A program made the translations under genes and the position numbers. From the NCBI GenBank assembly GCA_943354605.1, contig CALRCK010000002.1, forward strand, positions 135,186-199,185: a DNA stretch of 64,000 bases, in the 5' to 3' direction. A model generated the notes under the pieces. The model was given only the letters and a program-made list of their open reading frames with translations. It did no database searches and had not been told where the DNA came from. This DNA comes from Candidatus Uhrbacteria bacterium (GTDB taxonomy: Bacteria > Patescibacteriota > Patescibacteriia > UBA9934). Positions 1,596-58,142 of this stretch are shown here, piece after piece (position 1 is the stretch's first letter; each line of letters opens with the position of its first letter).

Positions 1596-2292
1596 CTATT
1601 CGCTCTAAATGAATTTCCGTGCCGTGCGACTCCTGTTTTGCGGTAAGATGACGACGACGGAGCAACTCTAACAACGCCAAAAAGCTTACCACAACTTCAC
1701 GCTTCGTTCCGGCGCCAGCAATCACGTCGCGGAAACGGAGATTCGCCCGGGTCTCGAGCACCGATTTCAATTCATCGATCCGTTCCTCCACCGACTTCGT
1801 GCGTTCCATCGATGTTTCTTGCAACGTAAAGAACGGTTCGAGTCGTTTCAGAATCGAACCGAATGCGTCGCGTAATGCATCGATCGAAATGTTCTTCGCA
1901 GGGTTGAACGATCGCGCGGTTTCACGATTCTTCGTCGCCCGTCGCACAAACATCGCCTTCGCAACGTATCGCTCTTCAAGTTTCACCGCCGCAGCAACAA
2001 ACTCTTGATACAAACGAAGCTGATCTTCGAGTTTTGCAGCGGCCGCGTCCTCTTCATCGATCCGAAGATACGGCATCAGCTCGCAACTCTTCAAATAAAT
2101 CAGACGCGAAGCAATAAGTAAAAAGTCCGCAAGCTCGTCGCTCGGCACGTCGTGCGCTTCAAGATATGCCAAATATTCGTCGGCGACTTTTGCGAGCGAG
2201 ACGGTGGTGATCGGCAAGTTCTTTTCCTCGATAACCTCAAGCAACAGCGCCAACGGCCCAGAAAACCCCTCCTGCTCCACCGAAAATGACAT
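1570..2292 (-). CDS. scpA: segregation and condensation protein A
   Basis: ScpA-like sequence (FSGPLALLLEVIEEKNLPITTVSLAKVADEYL). Track ORF extends to 2406 across a palindromic repeat, so the start was trimmed to the internal ATG at 2290-2292 (MSFSVEQ). Confidence 0.75.
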   Translation of the reverse strand: MSFSVEQEGFSGPLALLLEVIEEKNLPITTVSLAKVADEYLAYLEAHDVPSDELADFLLIASRLIYLKSCELMPYLRIDEEDAAAAKLEDQLRLYQEFVAAAVKLEERYVAKAMFVRRATKNRETARSFNPAKNISIDALRDAFGSILKRLEPFFTLQETSMERTKSVEERIDELKSVLETRANLRFRDVIAGAGTKREVVVSFLALLELLRRRHLTAKQESHGTEIHLERIEQTSLASN

Positions 2293-2316
2293 ATACGGGA
2301 TTGTACATGATTTCTT

Positions 2317-2360
2317 CATCTTCAACCCTAAGGGTTGCCCAACCCTTAGGGTTGAAGATG
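2317..2360. repeat. REP-like paired palindrome CAACCCTTAGGGTTG, copy 1 (perfect 21-bp inverted repeat)
   Basis: catcttcaaccctaagggttg-cc-caacccttagggttgaagatg. Intergenic, between scpA and the cupredoxin gene. Confidence 0.85.
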
Positions 2361-2370
2361 TCATTAGACC

Positions 2371-2400
2371 AAAAACAGGGCTAAAAAGCCCTGTTTTTTC
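2371..2400. terminator. bidirectional rho-independent terminator hairpin
   Basis: aacagggc-taaaaa-gccctgtt flanked by T/A tracts. Sits right after the cupredoxin gene stop. Confidence 0.6.
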
Positions 2401-2417
2401 TTTCAACCCCTAGCGTC

Positions 2418-3248
2418 CTACATCGTCTCTGCGGCGGTAACGACGATTGTTCCGGTCATGTCCGGATGATAGCTACAGTGAAACGTATAAGTTCCCGACG
2501 TACTGAAGCGACGAACAAAGCTCTGTCCCTCCTTCATCGTTCCTGTGCCCCAACTATCGTCGTCTGCCGTAGCAGTATGGCTCACAGCGTCATTATTGAT
2601 GAACTTCATGGTCTGACCAGCGGCAATCGTAAATTGATCACTGTCTCCCCCACCGAACATCATGTTTTCAATGGAGACTTCCGCAAATGCAGTCAACCCC
2701 TTGTCGTCAGTAATCGATGGCGTACCTAATTGAGTTGCCGATGGAACCGACGCTGGTCCAGAAGTGACTGTGGAAAGATCAAGAACATCTCCGATAGTGT
2801 AATTCCCAAAGAATCCATCCGGGACATCGTCAATCATCGTATTCCACTGTGCCCCATACATCCCTTCAGCATCAGTCTCTGTGGAAACCCATCGAAGCAC
2901 CCCGCCTGCCGTCACGAAATATACCTTTGGATCAGAATTGATTTTAATCATCTTCACTCCAGGACGATACGTCACATTTCCACCCATTTGAATTGTTGCG
3001 AGATCCGCATCGCTCAACATTTTTACTGCGGAAAAATCGCTGTACCACGTGAAGTATGTCTTGTCGTTTGGGAATACATACCGGAATCCATCCTCGCCCA
3101 TGTAGTACACCGCAGAGAATGTTGTTCCACGGATCAAATCCCCAGGACTCGCAGCCACTGTCTCTGCGCGAACAAACGCTGAAGGAACAAAGTTCGTAAG
3201 CAGACCAACCATCGCGAATACCGCAAGTGAACGTGATCGAAGATTCAT
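2418..3248 (-). CDS. secreted protein with C-terminal cupredoxin (type-1 copper) domain
   Basis: N-terminal signal peptide (MNLRSRSLAVFAMVGLL). C-terminal H...C-x2-H-x2-M ligand pattern (FHCSYHPDMTG). Track start at 3275 is TTG, so the ATG at 3246-3248 was used. Confidence 0.55.
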   Translation of the reverse strand: MNLRSRSLAVFAMVGLLTNFVPSAFVRAETVAASPGDLIRGTTFSAVYYMGEDGFRYVFPNDKTYFTWYSDFSAVKMLSDADLATIQMGGNVTYRPGVKMIKINSDPKVYFVTAGGVLRWVSTETDAEGMYGAQWNTMIDDVPDGFFGNYTIGDVLDLSTVTSGPASVPSATQLGTPSITDDKGLTAFAEVSIENMMFGGGDSDQFTIAAGQTMKFINNDAVSHTATADDDSWGTGTMKEGQSFVRRFSTSGTYTFHCSYHPDMTGTIVVTAAETM

Positions 3249-3300
3249 ATTAGGGTTAAGCTTAGTTAGTAACAAACTTAGTTAGTCACTAACGTAGTTT
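3249..3300. repeat. tandem 13-bp palindrome array (3 units) upstream of the cupredoxin gene start
   Basis: aagcttagttag-taa-caaacttagttag-tca-ctaacgtagtttg. Confidence 0.75.
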
Positions 3301-3308
3301 GTATGATA

Positions 3309-4622
3309 CTACGGACGCAGTCGCTGCACATCACGCGGGAAGATGGTTGCCTCTTTGACGTTCGCAAGGCCGAGAACGTTTTGCGTCAATCGCTGCAAGC
3401 CAATCGCGAATCCGCCTTCTGGCGGAATGCCGTACTTGTGCATCATCAAGTAGTCCTCAAAATCTGCAACGTTCAATCCTTTATCCACGATGCGCCCCAT
3501 CTGCTCGTCGTACCGATTGATACGCATACCGCCGGACGTAATCTCGCTGCCGAATCCGATGACGTCAAACGTAAGCGTGTTCTCCGGGTTTGCCGGATCA
3601 ACCTTTGCATAGAATGGTCGCTTTGCTGGCGGCCAATCAGTCACGAACACGAATCCGCAGTTGTGGTGCTTCACCGACCACACAGTGGACAACCAGCGTT
3701 CAGCGGCTGGCGAGAGGTCTGGTTCCGATGTCTCATCGACTCCCCCCTCATCACGATACGCCTCGAGCGCCTGTTTCAAGCTTATGCGAGGAAACTTTTC
3801 GCCAAGTGGCGGCAACGTTACTTCAAGAAGTTTGAGCTCGACCGCGCATTCGCGCTCAACCGTTGCGAGCATCTCGCGAATTGCACCCTCTTCAACATCC
3901 ATCACCTCACTCATGTCAGAAACGAAGCCCATTTCAAACTCAAGCTGGTTGAATTCCGTTAAGTGACGCGACGTGGCAAACTTTTCTGCGCGGAACGAAT
4001 ACGACACGCCGTACACGCCCTCATACACGCCCATCGTAATCTGCTTGTAGAGCTGTGCAGACTGCGTAAGTGTTGCTTCGCGGCCGTAATAATCGACCTT
4101 AAAGAATTCCGCACCGCCTTCGCTCGCAGCTCCTGCGAGAACCGGGAAGAAAATTTCTGTGAAGCCCTGCTTTTCCATGAACGAGCGGTAGCCATGAACA
4201 AGCGCGGCCTGCACGCGAAAAATTGCGCGCTGTTTTGGATGACGAAGCGTCACGACGCGATTGTCGAGTAACGTATCAAGATTCGCATCAAGAACCGGCT
4301 TGCCGATTTCGACGGGAACGACATCGACGACCGGCGAAAGCACCTCGAGGCTCTCGACCTGCATTTCGACTTCTTTCACCGACGGATCCTTCGATTTCTT
4401 TTCAACAATCTTTCCAGTCACCGACAGCACTGTTTCGACCTGAAGCCCCTTCAACTGTTCGAGCTGTTCCGCATTCAACACGGTTTGTGCGAGCCCACTC
4501 CGATCTCGGATAATAGCAAAGCCAAACTTGCTCATGTCGCGAAGTGCGTTGAGCCAGCCGGCGATAGTGACGGTTTCGCCGAGCTTTGATGAGAGATCTT
4601 TGATGAGAATTCTATTTTTCAT
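3309..4622 (-). CDS. aspS: aspartyl-tRNA synthetase, archaeal/eukaryotic type (class IIb)
   Basis: Class II motifs (FRAEK..TSRHLTEF). C-terminal GGMRI...YGIPPEGGFAIGLQRL...FPRDVQRLRP matches archaeal-type AspRS. Confidence 0.8.
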   Translation of the reverse strand: MKNRILIKDLSSKLGETVTIAGWLNALRDMSKFGFAIIRDRSGLAQTVLNAEQLEQLKGLQVETVLSVTGKIVEKKSKDPSVKEVEMQVESLEVLSPVVDVVPVEIGKPVLDANLDTLLDNRVVTLRHPKQRAIFRVQAALVHGYRSFMEKQGFTEIFFPVLAGAASEGGAEFFKVDYYGREATLTQSAQLYKQITMGVYEGVYGVSYSFRAEKFATSRHLTEFNQLEFEMGFVSDMSEVMDVEEGAIREMLATVERECAVELKLLEVTLPPLGEKFPRISLKQALEAYRDEGGVDETSEPDLSPAAERWLSTVWSVKHHNCGFVFVTDWPPAKRPFYAKVDPANPENTLTFDVIGFGSEITSGGMRINRYDEQMGRIVDKGLNVADFEDYLMMHKYGIPPEGGFAIGLQRLTQNVLGLANVKEATIFPRDVQRLRP

Positions 4623-4660
4623 AATGAGTAACTTAGTTAGTCAGTAACTTAGTTTCTTTT
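4623..4660. repeat. tandem 13-bp palindrome array (2 units) abutting the aspS ATG
   Basis: gagtaacttagttag-tca-gtaacttagtttc. Starts 1 nt from the aspS start codon. Confidence 0.75.
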
Positions 4661-4663
4661 TCA

Positions 4664-4730
4664 GTCATCCCCGCGCAGGCGGGGATCCAGACCGTTCTGA
4701 ATGATGGATCCCCGCCTGCGCGGGGATGAC
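4664..4730. other. perfect 25-bp GC-rich inverted repeat with a 17-nt loop
   Basis: gtcatccccgcgcaggcggggatcc...ggatccccgcctgcgcggggatgac. Lies between the asnS stop and the aspS start. Confidence 0.85.
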
Positions 4731-4740
4731 CAGAAGTGAA

Positions 4741-6048
4741 TTATGGAGTTGAGCGGCTGAGCATGCGTGGGAAGGCAATGGTTTCGCGAATGTGGTGCAC
4801 GCCAGTGATCCATCGGACCGTTCGCTCAAGACCGATGCCGAAACCGGAGTGTGGCACGCTTCCGTACTTTCGTGTGTTCAAGTACCACTCGTACTCGGCT
4901 AATGGATAATTCCGATCGATAATCTCTTTCTTAAGCGCCTCGTAACTCTCTTCACGCTGACTGCCGCCGATAATCTCGCGGCCTTCTTCTGGTGCAATAA
5001 GATCGGCGCACCTGGCGCGAAGCACGCCGGCGTCGTCCGTGTATCGCTTCATGTAGAACGATTTAATCTCCGCAGGGTAATCTTCGATAAATACCGGAAG
5101 CTGATACTTGTCGCCAAGCGCGATTTCTTCCTCCGTCGACATGTCGCCGAGGAGATCGACGGGCTCGACGGTCAGCTTCTCGTTGTGAAGAATCTTCTTC
5201 GCCTCAGAGTGCTTCAAGTGAACGAATGGTTCGTTGACGATGCGCTCCAAGATCGTCGTATCGCGCTCCAAAATCGCGAGCTCTTGTTTGCAGTTATCAA
5301 GCACGTCTTTGACGATGCGCTTCACCATCTTTTCCTGTACATCCATGTTCATCACTTGGTCGAAGTACGCCATCTCGGCGTCCATCATCCAAAGCTCGCT
5401 CAAGTGATGGCGCGTCTTGCTCTTCTCTGCGCGGAACACTGGACCAAAGTCGTACACTTTTCCAAAGCCCATAATTCCCGCTTCGCTGTAGAGCTGACCA
5501 GACTGCGAGAGATACTTTGGTTCTCCGTAGTAATCCACCTGGAACAACTGCGTGGTATCTTCGCAGCTTGTTGGCTGAATGATTGGGGTATCGAAACGAA
5601 TGAATCCTTCTTCGTGGAAAAACTGTTCGATGGAGAAAAAGACGCGATCACGAATGCGCAGCACAGCCCATGGGGTTTGCGATCGGAGATACAGATCGCG
5701 GTTGTCGAAAAGGAATTCTGGACCGTGCTCTTTCTTTCCGATTGGATAATCCTCTGGTGCAACGTGCACCATCGTGAATCCCGTTCCTTGAATTTCAAAT
5801 CCTGATGGCGAGCGCGGTTCGGCCTTTACGATTCCCTTCACAATGACAGACGACTCAAGACGAACGCCCTGCAACGACTCCCACGATGCCGCGTCGATGT
5901 CGCTTGGCGAGTACACAACCTGAACTCGCCCCGATCCATCACGGAACTGGAGGAAGTAAATTTTGCCGCTGCTTCGAAAATTGTACGCCCAGCCCTTGAG
6001 CTCAACTTCTTGCCCGACCATGGATGCTAACTGTGAAATGTAGGTCAT
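4741..6048 (-). CDS. asnS: asparaginyl-tRNA synthetase
   Basis: Class IIb. C-terminal GGSQREESYEAL...EYEWYLNTRKYGSVPHSGFGIGLER, which is AsnRS-specific. Confidence 0.8.
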   Translation of the reverse strand: MTYISQLASMVGQEVELKGWAYNFRSSGKIYFLQFRDGSGRVQVVYSPSDIDAASWESLQGVRLESSVIVKGIVKAEPRSPSGFEIQGTGFTMVHVAPEDYPIGKKEHGPEFLFDNRDLYLRSQTPWAVLRIRDRVFFSIEQFFHEEGFIRFDTPIIQPTSCEDTTQLFQVDYYGEPKYLSQSGQLYSEAGIMGFGKVYDFGPVFRAEKSKTRHHLSELWMMDAEMAYFDQVMNMDVQEKMVKRIVKDVLDNCKQELAILERDTTILERIVNEPFVHLKHSEAKKILHNEKLTVEPVDLLGDMSTEEEIALGDKYQLPVFIEDYPAEIKSFYMKRYTDDAGVLRARCADLIAPEEGREIIGGSQREESYEALKKEIIDRNYPLAEYEWYLNTRKYGSVPHSGFGIGLERTVRWITGVHHIRETIAFPRMLSRSTP

Positions 6049-6146
6049 AAAAAGAAAATTCGCCTGTACAACGTCACGATTGAATAATCATGAAGCTGTA
6101 CGGGCGAAGTTACTCGCGGTGCCACCGTACTTTTCCGCCAACAGCT

Positions 6147-6245
6147 TTTGGCCGATTTTCGACTCACTCGTCAGAAATTCGCTCACCGTACCGATACGTA
6201 CGCCTCGCGAACGTTCTTCCTCATTCATCGAAACTCTTCGCAAAA
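6147..6245. repeat. structured about 110-nt dispersed repeat, copy F (opposite orientation, between asnS and doc)
   Basis: Contains ttttggccgattttcgact...ccgtaccgatacgtacgcc...catcgaaactcttcgcaaaa, matching the reverse complement of the family consensus. Confidence 0.7.
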
Positions 6246-6373
6246 TCTGTCGCCGAACTCGTTTCTGTTGTATCGATCACTGAATCTAGAAGTTGTTTGC
6301 TCCTAGCGCTCGCTGTCACCACGAACATCAGTGAAATGAGTGTAGCACGAGGGCGAGAACCATTCAAACTTCT

Positions 6374-6784
6374 TTATTCTTGGACAAAAATGATGATTTT
6401 CGCAAATCTCGCCGCAAGATCGATGATGACAGTTTCGGGATCCTGTTTTGTTGACGCGATTTCTTTTGCGAGACGATAGAGCTGACGCCAACCGATCCGA
6501 AGTTCCGCTCGATTCATGTCAAGAAAAATATACAAAATCAGCAGCGCTGAGCGCTTGTTCCCGTCAACAAAATGATGATTCTTGATCACACGATGGAAGA
6601 GTCGCGCGGAAGTAGCAAAGATGTTTCGTCCATCTGGATGCATCGCACACAGTGCGAGATCGGATTCAATAGTAGAGACCCAAACATCATCAATTACCGG
6701 GAGATACGCCTCTAAATTCGAATTCCTTTGAGCGATCTCAATCCAGAGCAACAAATCTCCTGCGCTCGGAAACAGCAACGTCAC
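6374..6784 (-). CDS. doc: Doc (death-on-curing) toxin, Fic family
   Basis: Fic/Doc motif HHFVDGNKRSALL. GTG start at 6782-6784. Confidence 0.75.
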   Translation of the reverse strand: MTLLFPSAGDLLLWIEIAQRNSNLEAYLPVIDDVWVSTIESDLALCAMHPDGRNIFATSARLFHRVIKNHHFVDGNKRSALLILYIFLDMNRAELRIGWRQLYRLAKEIASTKQDPETVIIDLAARFAKIIIFVQE

Positions 6785-6785
6785 A

Positions 6786-6929
6786 TTATTCCTGAGAAAG
6801 TTTCTTCATGGCAGGCCCAAATTTTTTAGCAAATCTCTCCGTGCTTTCACGGAAACGTTTTGTACGAGGGTCTTCGTCAGTTTTTTTCAAAGAAAATACA
6901 GAGAAAATTTTGCCGATAATCTTTTTCAT
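6786..6929 (-). CDS. small ORF (47 aa) immediately upstream of doc; candidate antitoxin
   Basis: ATG at 6927-6929. Translation is MKKIIGKIFSVFSLKKTDEDPRTKRFRESTERFAKKFGPAMKKLSQE. Its stop lies 1 nt before the doc GTG. Not in the ORF track (under 60 aa) and no recognisable Phd/YefM similarity. Confidence 0.3.
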   Translation of the reverse strand: MKKIIGKIFSVFSLKKTDEDPRTKRFRESTERFAKKFGPAMKKLSQE

Positions 6930-28545: not shown

Positions 28546-28591
28546 AAGAAAAAAATGTAGACGTTTGAGAAGAATGACAAAGAGTTTTCTG

Positions 28592-28700
28592 TTTGCGACG
28601 AGTTTCGATGCGCGGCGAGCGAAGCTTCCGAGACGTACTTCTCGGTACGTTGAGGAAGTTCGCGATGGCGCAAGTCGAAAATCGGCCAAACAGGAAAGCC
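28592..28700. repeat. structured about 110-nt dispersed repeat, copy A (between rpsG and fusA)
   Basis: Shares ...AGTTTCGATG...GAGACGTAC-loop-GGTACGTTGAG...AAGTCGAAAATCGGCCAAA with five other loci. Outer stem gcgaagcttcc/ggaagttcgc. Confidence 0.8.
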
Positions 28701-28702
28701 GT

Positions 28703-29170
28703 CTATCGGGCCAAGTGAGCGAACGCACGGTTAGCCTCAGCCATACGCTGCACATCGAGTTTCTTCTTCACTGCATCGCCTTCGTTCTTGCTTGCTGCAA
28801 TCAATTCTTCCGCAAGCTTCTCGCACATTGGGCGACCCTTCTTTCCGCGAGCCGCCACGAGAATCCAGCGATACGCCAACGCATACCGACGATCGCCACG
28901 CACTGGCATTGGCACCTGGTAGTTTGCACCACCAACGCGCTTCGATTTTACCTCAACTGCTGGAGTGACGTTCTTGATTGCGGTGTCGAAGACTTCCAAT
29001 GGATCTGCCTTTGTTTCTTCCGCAATAATGTCGAATGCATCGTACACAATGCCGCGAGCGATGCTCTTCTTTCCACTTTCCATGACGTAATTGACTAACT
29101 TGGCAACCAAAACGCTCCCGTATTTTGCATCAGGAGCGAGATTGCGCTTTGGAGCGGCTTTACCACGCAT
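28703..29170 (-). CDS. rpsG: 30S ribosomal protein S7
   Basis: Starts [18 protein letters not shown]. Confidence 0.9.
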
Positions 29171-29261
29171 ATTATATTTCTTTTGGCGACACCGTTTTGC
29201 TTCCCACGTGGATGTGGTACTCGGCATCTTTGATTAAATTGGACCGAACTGAAGTGACGAG

Positions 29262-29378
29262 GCTTTTGCATTTGAGCCTAGTTTCGATGCAGGACGAGCA
29301 AAGGTCGCGAGGCGTACTTCATGTGTACGTTGAGCGACTTTGCGATGTCCTAAGTCGAAAATAGGCCAAATGCAAAAG
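29262..29378. repeat. structured about 110-nt dispersed repeat, copy C (between rpsL and rpsG)
   Basis: Same family. Inner hairpin GCGTAC-TTCATGT-GTACGT. Outer stem caaaggtcgc/gcgactttg differs from copy A but stays complementary. Confidence 0.75.
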
Positions 29379-29384
29379 TCTCAA

Positions 29385-45139: not shown

Positions 45140-45175
45140 AGAAGAAATGATATCAGAAATGACTTTGGCGCTTTT

Positions 45176-45300
45176 ATTCGCGACCAGTTTCGATGAAGAT
45201 CGAGGAAAGCTTCTGAGACGTACTTCTTGGTACGTTGAAGAAGTTTCCGATGATCTGAATCGAAAATGGGCCGAAGAAATGCGCCAAAAGGAAAGCCGGC
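45176..45300. repeat. structured about 110-nt dispersed repeat, copy B (upstream of the ABC exporter)
   Basis: Same family. Outer stem ggaaagcttct/agaagtttcc is compensatory relative to copy A. Confidence 0.8.
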
Positions 45301-56102: not shown

Positions 56103-56109
56103 TGGTTGA

Positions 56110-56215
56110 ACTTCCTCATTTCGCCCATTTTCGACTTGCTCCTCGACGATATCGACGACGTACCGAGAAGTACGTCTTGACGATCCCGTCTTCGTCGCGC
56201 ACCGAAACTGGTCTG
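56110..56215. repeat. structured about 110-nt dispersed repeat, copy D (opposite orientation, between the two tRNAs)
   Basis: Reverse complement matches the family (ttcgcccattttcgacttgc...cgtaccgagaagtacgtct...gcgcaccgaaactgg). Confidence 0.7.
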
Positions 56216-56302
56216 AAATGAGAGCGTTCAACGCCAGCAATGATGCACAATTTTTTGACCCGGGTCAAGAAAACGAGTACTATTGCGTCGTTCAGTGGAT
56301 AT

Positions 56303-56426: not shown

Positions 56427-57119
56427 CTACCACCCCTTCTCCTTCAGTGCATTCGCGGCGGCGGAAATTTGGGCTTCTTGTTTGCTGGTTCCTTCGCCCT
56501 TTGCAACAAGATCTTTGCCAAGGTACGCGCCCATAATGAACGTCTTTTGATGATCTGGTCCGGACTCCTCGAGAACCTTGTAACTTGGCGTGATCGACAA
56601 TCGGGACTGCGCCGCTTCTTGGAACTTACTCTTTGGATCGATATACGAACGCTCCGCAATGATGTCGCCGAGCTTAGAGACAACGTGTTTCAAGATGAAT
56701 TCTTTCGACAAGTCCCAACCAAAGTCTAAGTAGATCGCACCGATAATCGCCTCCATCGCGTTCGCAAGAATGTATCGGCGCGCCTTGCTGTTGGAATCCT
56801 TCTCCTCGCCGCGCGACAGATACAAATACGGCTCGATGCCGATGTTCTGACCAATCACCGCAAGGCTGTCGCCATTCACGATGGACGACCGCCATGTTGT
56901 CAGCTCGCCTTCTGGATTCTCGTACGTGGTGTACAAATATTCTGTCACGACAAGCTCGAGAACAGCATCGCCAAGGAACTCCAAGCGTTCGTTATGCGCC
57001 AATGGAAAGTCGGGATGCTCGTTCAAATACGAACGATGCACCACGGCCTGTTCAAGATGCCCGCCGGGTTTCAAAGGAATGTTCAAAATTTTTGCGAGTG
57101 CGGCAATGTCTTTCTGCAT
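56427..57119 (-). CDS. rnc: ribonuclease III
   Basis: RNase III signature ERLEFLGDAVLELVVTEYLY plus a C-terminal dsRBD. Confidence 0.9.
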   Translation of the reverse strand: MQKDIAALAKILNIPLKPGGHLEQAVVHRSYLNEHPDFPLAHNERLEFLGDAVLELVVTEYLYTTYENPEGELTTWRSSIVNGDSLAVIGQNIGIEPYLYLSRGEEKDSNSKARRYILANAMEAIIGAIYLDFGWDLSKEFILKHVVSKLGDIIAERSYIDPKSKFQEAAQSRLSITPSYKVLEESGPDHQKTFIMGAYLGKDLVAKGEGTSKQEAQISAAANALKEKGW

Positions 57120-57681: not shown

Positions 57682-57945
57682 TTACTCGTGGTTGTGACCT
57701 TCGTGACCCTTCATTTTCTTTGCTGGAGCCTTCTTGACCGTCTTGGCAATAGCCTTCTTTACCTCTGCAGCGCCCTGCTTTGCGACGTTGCGATCGCCGT
57801 ACGCTCCGCAGTTCTTACATGCGCGGTGTGGCAAGAGAATCGCCTCACACTTTGCACATACTGCAACCTGCTGTGGTTTGAGAGCGTGGTGGGAGCGGCG
57901 TCGGCGAACCTTGGAACGTGAGCTTCGGAATGACGGCAATGGCAT
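57682..57945 (-). CDS. rpmF: 50S ribosomal protein L32 with Lys/His-rich C-terminal extension
   Basis: L32 core with C-x2-C...C-x2-C, followed by a KKAIAKTVKKAPAKKMKGHEGHNHE tail. Confidence 0.85.
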   Translation of the reverse strand: MPLPSFRSSRSKVRRRRSHHALKPQQVAVCAKCEAILLPHRACKNCGAYGDRNVAKQGAAEVKKAIAKTVKKAPAKKMKGHEGHNHE

Positions 57946-57971
57946 AAACGATATTTATAGGATTTCTTTAT

Positions 57972-58072
57972 TTGCGACAAATTTGGGTGCGCGACGAGAA
58001 AAGCTTTCGAGACGTACGTATTGGTACGTTGAGAAAGTTTTCGATGTCGCAAGGCCAAAGTTGGCCAAATAA
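57972..58072. repeat. structured about 110-nt dispersed repeat, copy E (upstream of rpmF, bordering the GC-rich islet)
   Basis: Same family. Outer stem gaaaagctttc/gaaagttttc is compensatory. Confidence 0.8.
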
Positions 58073-58142
58073 AGGAATCCGTGAATGCGCAAAGAGTAGC
58101 CAAATATCCAATTGACGTCAAGCCAGAAATAGGGCTATTCTC

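Follow-up and report, generated by a model that had tools for sequence, protein, structure and literature searches.

A probably mobile, covarying hairpin element at essential operons and stable RNA genes of Candidatus Uhrbacteria

REPINs are doublets of repetitive extragenic palindromic (REP) sequences that form hairpins and are mobilised by RAYT transposases (PMC3116915, PMC3337134); compensatory changes are common in them, and an asymmetric intermediate, a hairpin with a 5′ tail, has been proposed (PMC3116915). Rickettsia palindromic elements (RPE) have been found fused into the tmRNA and M1 RNA genes, and the targets of YPAL elements adjoin dyad symmetries (PMC2229807). The RNA hairpin of the Correia/NEMIS repeat is reported to be a substrate of RNase III (PMC2649163). 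Here we describe a hairpin element present in six copies in a 64,000-nucleotide stretch of a Candidatus Uhrbacteria bacterium (assembly GCA_943354605.1, contig CALRCK010000002.1, positions 135,186 to 199,185 of the forward strand; hereafter, the window). We put at about 70% the probability that it is a non-autonomous, non-coding mobile element of a narrow Uhrbacteria clade, of the REPIN/RPE/Correia/ERIC kind, that spreads via a folded single strand. Bacteria of the candidate phyla radiation (CPR), or Patescibacteria, have genomes of about 1 Mb with very short spacers and few recognised mobile elements. The L-numbers used below denote 8–14-kb pieces of related genomes, and with them 524 kb was examined.

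Six structured loci of about 110 nt had been proposed in an earlier note on this DNA. A covariance model built from the six window copies and run unfiltered over the whole window recovers exactly six matches, at the proposed positions (97–135 bits, E 1e-22 to 1e-31); the reverse strands of the six score 15–52 bits, and the top unrelated match in the window 26 bits. The element is real but longer than had been thought, being a single rod hairpin with a base-to-base length of about 119–130 nt in all copies but one. Copy B, the one originally flagged (28576..28703, plus strand, 129 bits), fills the spacer between rpsG and fusA in antisense to the operon, its right end overlapping the rpsG stop codon (28703–28705). 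Copy C (29259..29382, plus strand, 130 bits) lies in the rpsL–rpsG spacer, also antisense to the operon, with its right end 2 nt from the rpsL stop codon and an ortholog in L001. Copy D (45164..45288, plus strand, 135 bits) is about 25 nt upstream of the start codon of an ABC exporter gene (45139) and antisense to that gene, and copy F (57960..58080, plus strand, 133 bits) is antisense within the 5′ leader of rpmF, where about 14 nt separate its left end from the start codon at 57945. The remaining two are on the minus strand, in agreement with the two inverted copies reported before. Copy A (6134..6257, 111 bits), between doc and asnS, is in sense orientation within the asnS T-box leader, flanked by the antiterminator and by a short specifier stem with AAC-A in its loop, and has orthologs in L039, L005, L016 and L020. 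Copy E (56105..56232, 97 bits), between the tRNA-Lys and tRNA-Arg genes, lies in sense orientation between a promoter-like TTGACC-17-CATCAT (56268–56240) and tRNA-Lys (56101–56027), its right end 3–4 nt from the tRNA-Lys 5′ end, and has an ortholog in L003. All six gene contexts had been assigned correctly.

The rod is built from a series of helices and purine-rich internal loops. At its base is an outer helix of 16–17 bp, consensus TAGRACTTTCTCATTTG / CAAATGAGGAAGTYCTA, which is very variable and compensated to the last base. Above it come a bulged C and an A·G mismatch (sometimes G·A), a 3-bp helix and a G·A mismatch, and then a boxed 7-bp helix, TTTCGAU / GUCGAAA, in which a 5′ box pairs with a 3′ box and which is closed by a conserved U·G. 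In copy B the 5′ box AGTTTCGATG occupies 28601..28610 of the plus strand and terminates in the first G·A internal loop, while the 3′ box AAGTCGAAAATCGGCCAAA occupies 28672..28690. The box pairs (26–32 with 110–116 in an alignment of 58 copies) are nearly invariant, and the boxes of copy F carry a compensated change, TTTGG/CCAAA. Next follow a 2x2 loop, which most copies form as tandem G·A, and then two variable helices and a second tandem G·A loop. In copy B the variable middle helix, GCGAAGCTTCC / GGAAGTTCGC with a bulged G (28619..28663, plus strand), encloses this tandem G·A loop and the apical hairpin, ACGTAC-TTCTCG-GTACGT (28633–28650, plus strand). The apical stem, (G/A)CGUAC / GUACG(U/G), is invariant: its CG, GC, UA, AU and CG pairs occur in 58 of 58 copies, bar one compensated UA. 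Its loop is variable, of 6–7 nt and rarely 8. The stem formerly described as the outer one (gcgaagcttcc/ggaagttcgc in one copy) does vary in a complementary manner, as claimed, but it is the middle helix with its bulged G, and a further covarying helix of 16–17 bp lies outside the two boxes.

Support for this fold comes from covariation. An alignment and folding of the six copies, as the earlier note had proposed (MAFFT and RNAalifold), gives 48 pairs, 25 of them with double changes. Sequence from related Candidatus Uhrbacteria/Patescibacteria assemblies brings the family to at least 58 copies, in which 94.0% of cells are paired (78.3% in shuffles) and 39 of 48 pairs show double changes (22.4 in shuffles); none of 500 shuffles matches the observed values. 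When the 3′ partners are slid by 1–3 columns, pairing falls to 35–42% of cells. With 49 non-orthologous copies in an alignment not fitted to the model, double changes are seen at 33 of 44 pairs. The selection on intramolecular pairing that had been claimed from the six copies is real. As RNA, copy B has a folding energy of −61.7 kcal/mol (z = −6.0), and as DNA one of −35.6 kcal/mol (z = −5.6). The element is conserved in the manner of a folded single strand: across the family the apical stem, the two tandem G·A loops and the boxed helix are invariant, the other helices vary with compensation, and columns of the outer helix hold up to six pair types. The element contains no conserved small open reading frame (ORF), and inspection of either strand gave no internal sigma-70 promoter.

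The evidence for mobility comes from orthologous sites. When both flanks of each copy were matched against all the related sequence examined and the window, eight loci proved to carry the element in one genome and to lack it at the corresponding site of a related genome. Copy B is absent from L001, where the rpsG–fusA spacer measures 18 nt, and copy F from the rpmF leader of L003, while the site filled at L003:6814 is empty in the window at about 57625. Three further filled sites are L009:2315 (empty in L043, the target being a 3-nt stop–start spacer), L010:6430 (empty in L033) and L018:2414 (empty in L050). The other two concern RNase P RNA: L029:6586 is filled within the RNA and empty in L041, and L041:1922 is filled just 3′ of the RNA and empty in both L029 and L037. 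The element is mobile or at least dispensable. It is short, non-coding, multi-copy and polymorphic for presence, like a classical bacterial miniature inverted-repeat transposable element (MITE). The REP/MITE-like character suggested in the earlier note gains support from these eight sites, from the insertion within RNase P RNA and from two internal-deletion derivatives (L011:70-169 and L002:3638-3708). At L018 the element was inserted between the S15 stop codon and a conserved 38-nt hairpin, CCCGTGTACCGACATCGTATCACGATGCGGTGCACGGG, that stands 3′ of rpsO and before an NYN-domain gene (L018 2542-2600, L050 about 2485-2530) and may be a terminator or processing site.

The two junctions differ. 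The right one is sharp, and the left one has 4–12 bases extra or replaced. No consistent direct repeat is present in the eight filled/empty comparisons. We also considered a target-site duplication that includes TA and rejected it: the terminal trinucleotides covary as inverted repeats (TAG/CTA, CAG/CTG, GAG/CTC, AAG/CTT) and are therefore part of the stem. The ends of the element are inverted repeats, but variable ones; classical MITEs share conserved terminal inverted repeats with a transposase-encoding parent insertion sequence. CCA or AAA tails were considered as marks of RNA 3′-end addition, and at 4 of 49 and 5 of 49 copies they are too weak for use.

Many of the insertion sites adjoin stable RNA genes, and there the polarity is strict. 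All four arrangements of neighbouring genes and both orientations occur in the family; between co-directional genes, a hand count gives roughly 20 antisense and 10 sense copies, and none of about 60 copies lies inside a protein ORF. About one third of the distinct loci touch a stable RNA gene (tRNA, 23S, tmRNA or RNase P), and there the right end of the element faces the RNA gene in 15 of 15 cases. The eight upstream copies are all sense (tRNA-Lys, by copy E and its L003 ortholog; L032; L035; two in L038; L027; L011:70; 23S in L024), with the right end 3–7 nt from the mature 5′ end. The seven downstream copies are all antisense and follow tRNA-Leu (L023), tRNA-Val (L035, L032), tRNA-Arg (L038), tmRNA (L011), 23S (L024) and RNase P RNA (L041). 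At the five tRNA/tmRNA downstream junctions that were read, the hairpin starts directly after the encoded CCA or ACC 3′ end; L041:1922 abuts the RNase P RNA 3′ end, and by Rfam's placement of the 23S 3′ end L024:1903 lies 10 nt away from it. Inside structured RNAs (RNase P RNA and the T-box leader) the element is in sense orientation.

Several of these RNA loci merit description in their own right. In L024 (1740-5218), the 23S gene (2041-5075, minus strand) is bracketed by two inverted copies just outside its processing stem; 5S follows the downstream copy, and the 8-kb piece contains no 16S gene. A giant processing stem formed between two copies that flank one tRNA or 23S gene was considered and rejected, as the arms that face each other in L035 and L024 show no complementarity on inspection. 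RNase P RNA is found at L037 1272-1900, L029 about 6200-6800 and L041 1499-1923, in each case under the Rfam gathering score of 100 bits. It scores 97.6 bits over the full model without the insert (L041) and 61.6 bits, misaligned, with it (L037), the model taking the right arm of the element, UGAGGAAGUUCUG, for the P4 strand GAGGAAAGUCCG. The asnS T-box leader of the window (about 6052–6352, minus strand) also falls under the Rfam gathering score (25 bits, E 8e-4). It consists of a promoter-like TTGAAT-17-TACACT, a short stem, copy A, the T-box/antiterminator GGUGGCACCGCG (6097–6127) and a terminator with a U run. The 7-nt loop of the short stem, CAAACAA, holds the Asn codon AAC followed by A, and resembles that of ‘ultrashort’ T-boxes. 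A 33-nt core of the T-box/antiterminator is identical in L005, L016 and L020 and differs by one base in L039, the rest of the leader in these four being similar but not identical. Beside copy E, at 56240–56283, the divergent promoter-like sites of tRNA-Lys (minus strand) and tRNA-Arg (plus strand) share a palindromic −35 region, TTGACCCGGGTCAA.

The constraint on the element is strand-specific. The mean folding energy is −63.0 kcal/mol for the sense strand and −46.8 for its complement, and in 57 of 58 copies the sense strand has the greater stability, although both strands fold well and give a near-continuous duplex of about 55 bp in either orientation. Wobble cells are G·U in 254 cases and A·C in 25, and the internal loops are all purine-rich on the sense strand. 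Both features are alike in copies that are sense or antisense to host genes. As the same strand-specific fold is kept whatever the host orientation, the host transcript is not the source of the constraint, and a simple explanation by cis-regulation or mRNA stability is ruled out. A cis-regulatory role in translation operons, one of the options raised in the earlier note, does not hold up for this reason, nor in view of the occurrence of both orientations and all four gene arrangements and the absence of copies B and F from close relatives with the same operons.

A broader host function can also be considered. The hairpin could serve as a portable signal for processing or stability, such as an RNase III site punctuating polycistronic transcripts and tRNA or rRNA precursors, which the host keeps because its compact genome has no other processing signals; mobility would then be secondary. 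The loci speak for such a module: beyond the third that touch stable RNA genes, many lie by translation and transcription genes (S12/S7/EF-G, L32, S9, S15, L10/rpoB, NusG), and the ORF downstream of the filled L003:6814 site reads as NusB from its translation only. The good folding of both strands and the RNase III gene in the window (rnc, 56427–57119) fit as well, as do the higher conservation of orthologs than of their flanks and the compensation in place seen in RNase P RNA (below). We nevertheless regard it as unlikely, since G·U pairs and purine-rich G·A loops are kept on the sense strand whichever strand the host transcript carries, and selection is thus not on that transcript; moreover, copies B and F are dispensed with in the same essential operons of close relatives, and the RNase P RNA insert is found in some genomes and not in a close relative.

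One could also suppose independently transcribed small RNA genes, trans-acting or protein-binding, similar to Y-RNA or 6S rods. The conservation is RNA-like, with an invariant apex and loops and covarying helices, the sense strand is much the more stable, and both copy E and its L003 ortholog have promoter-like hexamers that end 7–10 nt ahead of their left ends, with a similar arrangement at L032:6035. This is very unlikely to be the explanation: no conserved promoter or terminator travels with the element, its flanks are unrelated, and copies are found directly against the 5′ and 3′ ends of tRNAs, across stop codons and within RNase P RNA. The clear promoters near copies belong to the downstream tRNA or other gene and are present at empty sites too. 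A portable promoter in the left flank was considered separately and rejected, the A/T-rich −10-like strings there being frequent and neither fixed in position nor present in all copies.

How might such an element spread? We propose that an enzyme encoded elsewhere acts in trans, recognises the folded sense strand as single-stranded DNA (ssDNA) or RNA, and copies or moves it. Only copies that keep the hairpin would leave descendants, and this survival, together with conversion between copies, would produce the covariation. Joining would be polar: the right (3′) end would be attached precisely, with a preference for the foot of structured RNA genes, and the left end imprecisely, so that 4–12 A/T-rich bases there would be extra or replaced. 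Once co-transcribed, the duplex of about 55 bp would probably be removed or trimmed by RNase III and RNase P in either orientation, so that insertions in essential operons and in the flanks of pre-tRNA and rRNA would be tolerated.

A variant of this proposal is a SINE-like (short interspersed nuclear element-like) retroposon, spreading via the sense-strand RNA with copying begun at the RNA 3′ (right) end. Copying would be primed by the 3′-OH of an abundant stable RNA, or would follow an end-to-end template switch from the 5′ end of one. A single rule of this kind would account for downstream copies that are antisense and abut the CCA/ACC 3′ end at the five tRNA/tmRNA junctions, for upstream copies that are sense with the right end 3–7 nt from the mature 5′ end, for untemplated-looking bases at the left junction, and for RNA-type conservation independent of host gene orientation. 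The Patescibacteria phylum is rich in reverse transcriptases. We consider the retroposon a quite unlikely case all the same.

A folded ssDNA substrate for a site-specific recombinase, such as an integron attC site, is a further candidate. Integron attC sites are folded single-strand substrates of 57–141 nt in which structure and not sequence is conserved and bulged bases set the strand choice. The size of about 125 nt, the imperfect palindrome, the conserved structure with bulged bases and the strand-specific fold would all suit this idea. However, the ends read TAGRAC...GTYCTA, without the R′′/R′ consensus RYYYAAC...GTTRRRY, and the copies are solitary, in both orientations and among housekeeping genes, with no same-orientation cassette arrays and no integrase among 30 neighbouring ORFs. 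We hold it to be extremely improbable.

Several observations weigh against a mobile element. First, the 30 neighbouring ORFs (encoding S9, L10, RpoB, NusG, S15, MraW, FtsA, SSB, an aminoacyl-tRNA synthetase, QueA, HrcA and surface proteins) include no transposase, reverse transcriptase or integrase. There is also no Y1/HUH-like ORF in the 524 kb, a weak negative; tblastn with RAYT and IS200 TnpA queries gave only chance matches within unrelated genes. Second, none of 72 loci offers a strain-level presence/absence pair with near-identical flanks, and each ‘empty’ site could formally be a precise deletion. Third, the sense strand has no replication-strand bias (21 versus 25 on G-rich and C-rich strands), unlike single-strand transposons of the IS200/IS605 type; the window is a single replichore by GC skew, yet holds both orientations. 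Fourth, in REPINs the arm ends (the REP 16-mers) are most conserved and the spacer is variable, and here the reverse is the case, which also differs from classical MITEs. Finally, conservation is usually higher in orthologous copies than in the flanks, which are partly coding (88–98% versus 70–90%), with 32 compensated doubles, 43 pairing-keeping singles and 38 breaking singles in orthologous comparisons. A purely selfish, decaying element would need gene conversion or host-level selection for such conservation.

Some of the changes would fit such conversion. The RNase P inserts of L029 and L037 differ by five compensated doubles and no breaks, but they swap stem variants that are common family-wide (…CTTCT/AGAAG… versus …CTCGC/GCGAG…), so that stepwise compensation and gene conversion (or replacement by a different copy) are equally likely origins. 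In two orthologous pairs, E/L003 and L010:3967/L033:50, the copies resemble each other less than their flanks do, which suggests replacement. Compensatory change had been set against a recent burst of identical copies in the earlier note; the covariation is indeed strong, but orthologs often swap common stem variants, and part of it therefore reflects subfamily structure or gene conversion. The 524 kb also contained no orphan (unpaired) box or apex motif outside the known copies that could belong to a long or split autonomous version, nor the transposase-bearing full-length copies that would have made the six loci remnants of a longer mobile element.

The family is confined to one lineage, as had been supposed, namely a narrow set of groundwater and freshwater Uhrbacteria. 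A scan of GTDB species representatives with a pattern from the apex and 3′ box found 43 loci, of which the model confirms 38, all in metagenome-assembled genomes (MAGs) of Candidatus Uhrbacteria or the ‘Patescibacteria group’. A few confirmed loci are labelled ‘uncultured Gammaproteobacteria’, yet are 84–90% identical to and syntenic with Uhrbacteria MAGs. The four MAGs so labelled, CAYMYA, CAZVBP, CAYHKX and CAYROW, all carry the element (L008, L011, L013, L015, L016, L027, L034, L037, L041, L043). Among the loci with comparable orthologous flanks, those of CAYROW (L043, L041) and CAYHKX (L016) are syntenic with Uhrbacteria/Patescibacteria MAGs, with a flank identity of 84–90% for L043 and 70–92% for the others. 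The Gammaproteobacteria label is probably wrong. The window itself is syntenic with element-bearing MAGs at about 75–98% identity. In metagenomes the pattern was found mostly on Hainich groundwater contigs, with a few others; a single match among viral contigs was rejected by the covariance model as chance. Strict pattern matches number five in the 64-kb window and two in a 284-kb contig, and as a rough guess a genome holds tens of copies. In a divergent subfamily (L038:3799, L038:4013, L032:6318, L011:3067) the apex and the G·A loops are kept and the boxes differ. The earlier note could match the element to no known family, and Rfam likewise gives no element match at the gathering threshold (the window and 18 loci) or at E <= 1 with permissive filters (three copy-holding regions). 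The sole Rfam alignment that touches a copy is a sub-threshold T-box match on the asnS antiterminator, which borrows the CGAUGAA box of copy A as a surrogate Stem I base. Such a family did not turn up in the CPR/Patescibacteria literature, which was searched for MITE and REP families. An unrelated hairpin repeat, with GC-rich arms of 26–27 bp (GGTCATCCCCGCGCAGGCGGGGATCC), a 15-nt loop and −62 kcal/mol, occurs at 4663–4733 of the window between an ORF ending at 4622 and asnS, and its arms recur as inverted pairs in L005 (twice) and L021.

The element is notable for its strict end polarity at structured RNA genes and for an RNA-like conservation with a conserved centre and variable ends. A structured element of 125 nt has here colonised the most essential loci: the S12–S7–EF-G operon, the rpmF leader, stable RNA flanks, the interior of RNase P RNA and a T-box leader. 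For annotation this has practical consequences, as the element lowers the Rfam scores of RNase P RNA, whose gene automatic annotation will miss or misplace in these Uhrbacteria, and can be mistaken for a riboswitch or leader. The insertions are also a natural test of the extent to which RNase P RNA and a T-box can accommodate inserted helices, and a possible strain-typing marker for Uhrbacteria. With its strict end polarity and lack of target duplication, the hairpin is a tractable system, and identification of its mobilising enzyme could reveal a new single-strand recombinase or retro-copying activity.

Comparison with described systems places the element closest to the hairpin repeats introduced above. 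In integron attC sites the centre is variable, while in the Uhrbacteria element it is conserved, with no cassette arrays and no integrase found. Correia/NEMIS repeats are likewise hairpin repeats of about 100–155 bp, co-transcribed with their neighbours and differing in presence between relatives (PMC2649163). Their terminal inverted repeats of 26 bp are conserved, however, their target duplication is TA, and they carry an IHF site and promoters that face outwards; the Uhrbacteria element shows none of these traits. ERIC/IRU and YPAL/RU-2 are imperfect palindromes of about 127–168 bp in transcribed intergenic regions, in either orientation (PMC2229807), much like the Uhrbacteria element, and the position of YPAL beside dyad symmetries parallels that at the foot of tRNA, rRNA and RNase P stems. 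However, YPAL makes target duplications of 3–26 bp, and ERIC and YPAL share no sequence similarity with the element and have no reported 100% end polarity at stable RNA genes. RPE are also palindromic, of about 100–150 bp, in reduced genomes and tolerated in functional RNA genes, and do not all have TA ends. They are best known for in-frame insertion in protein-coding genes, as opposed to 0 of about 60 copies here, and end polarity at RNA genes is not described for them; given the different phylum, a sequence relationship is not expected. REPINs have a known RAYT, hundreds of copies and proteobacterial hosts, whereas the Uhrbacteria element has apparently tens of copies per genome and a CPR host. 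The RAYT, a Y1/HUH transposase, is encoded by a single-copy gene that usually has REPINs on its flanks. Like REPINs, it is short, non-coding, extragenic and dispersed, its two arms form one long hairpin with compensatory changes, and it persists vertically in a lineage; the 5′-tailed intermediate proposed for REPINs also recalls its imprecise left junction.

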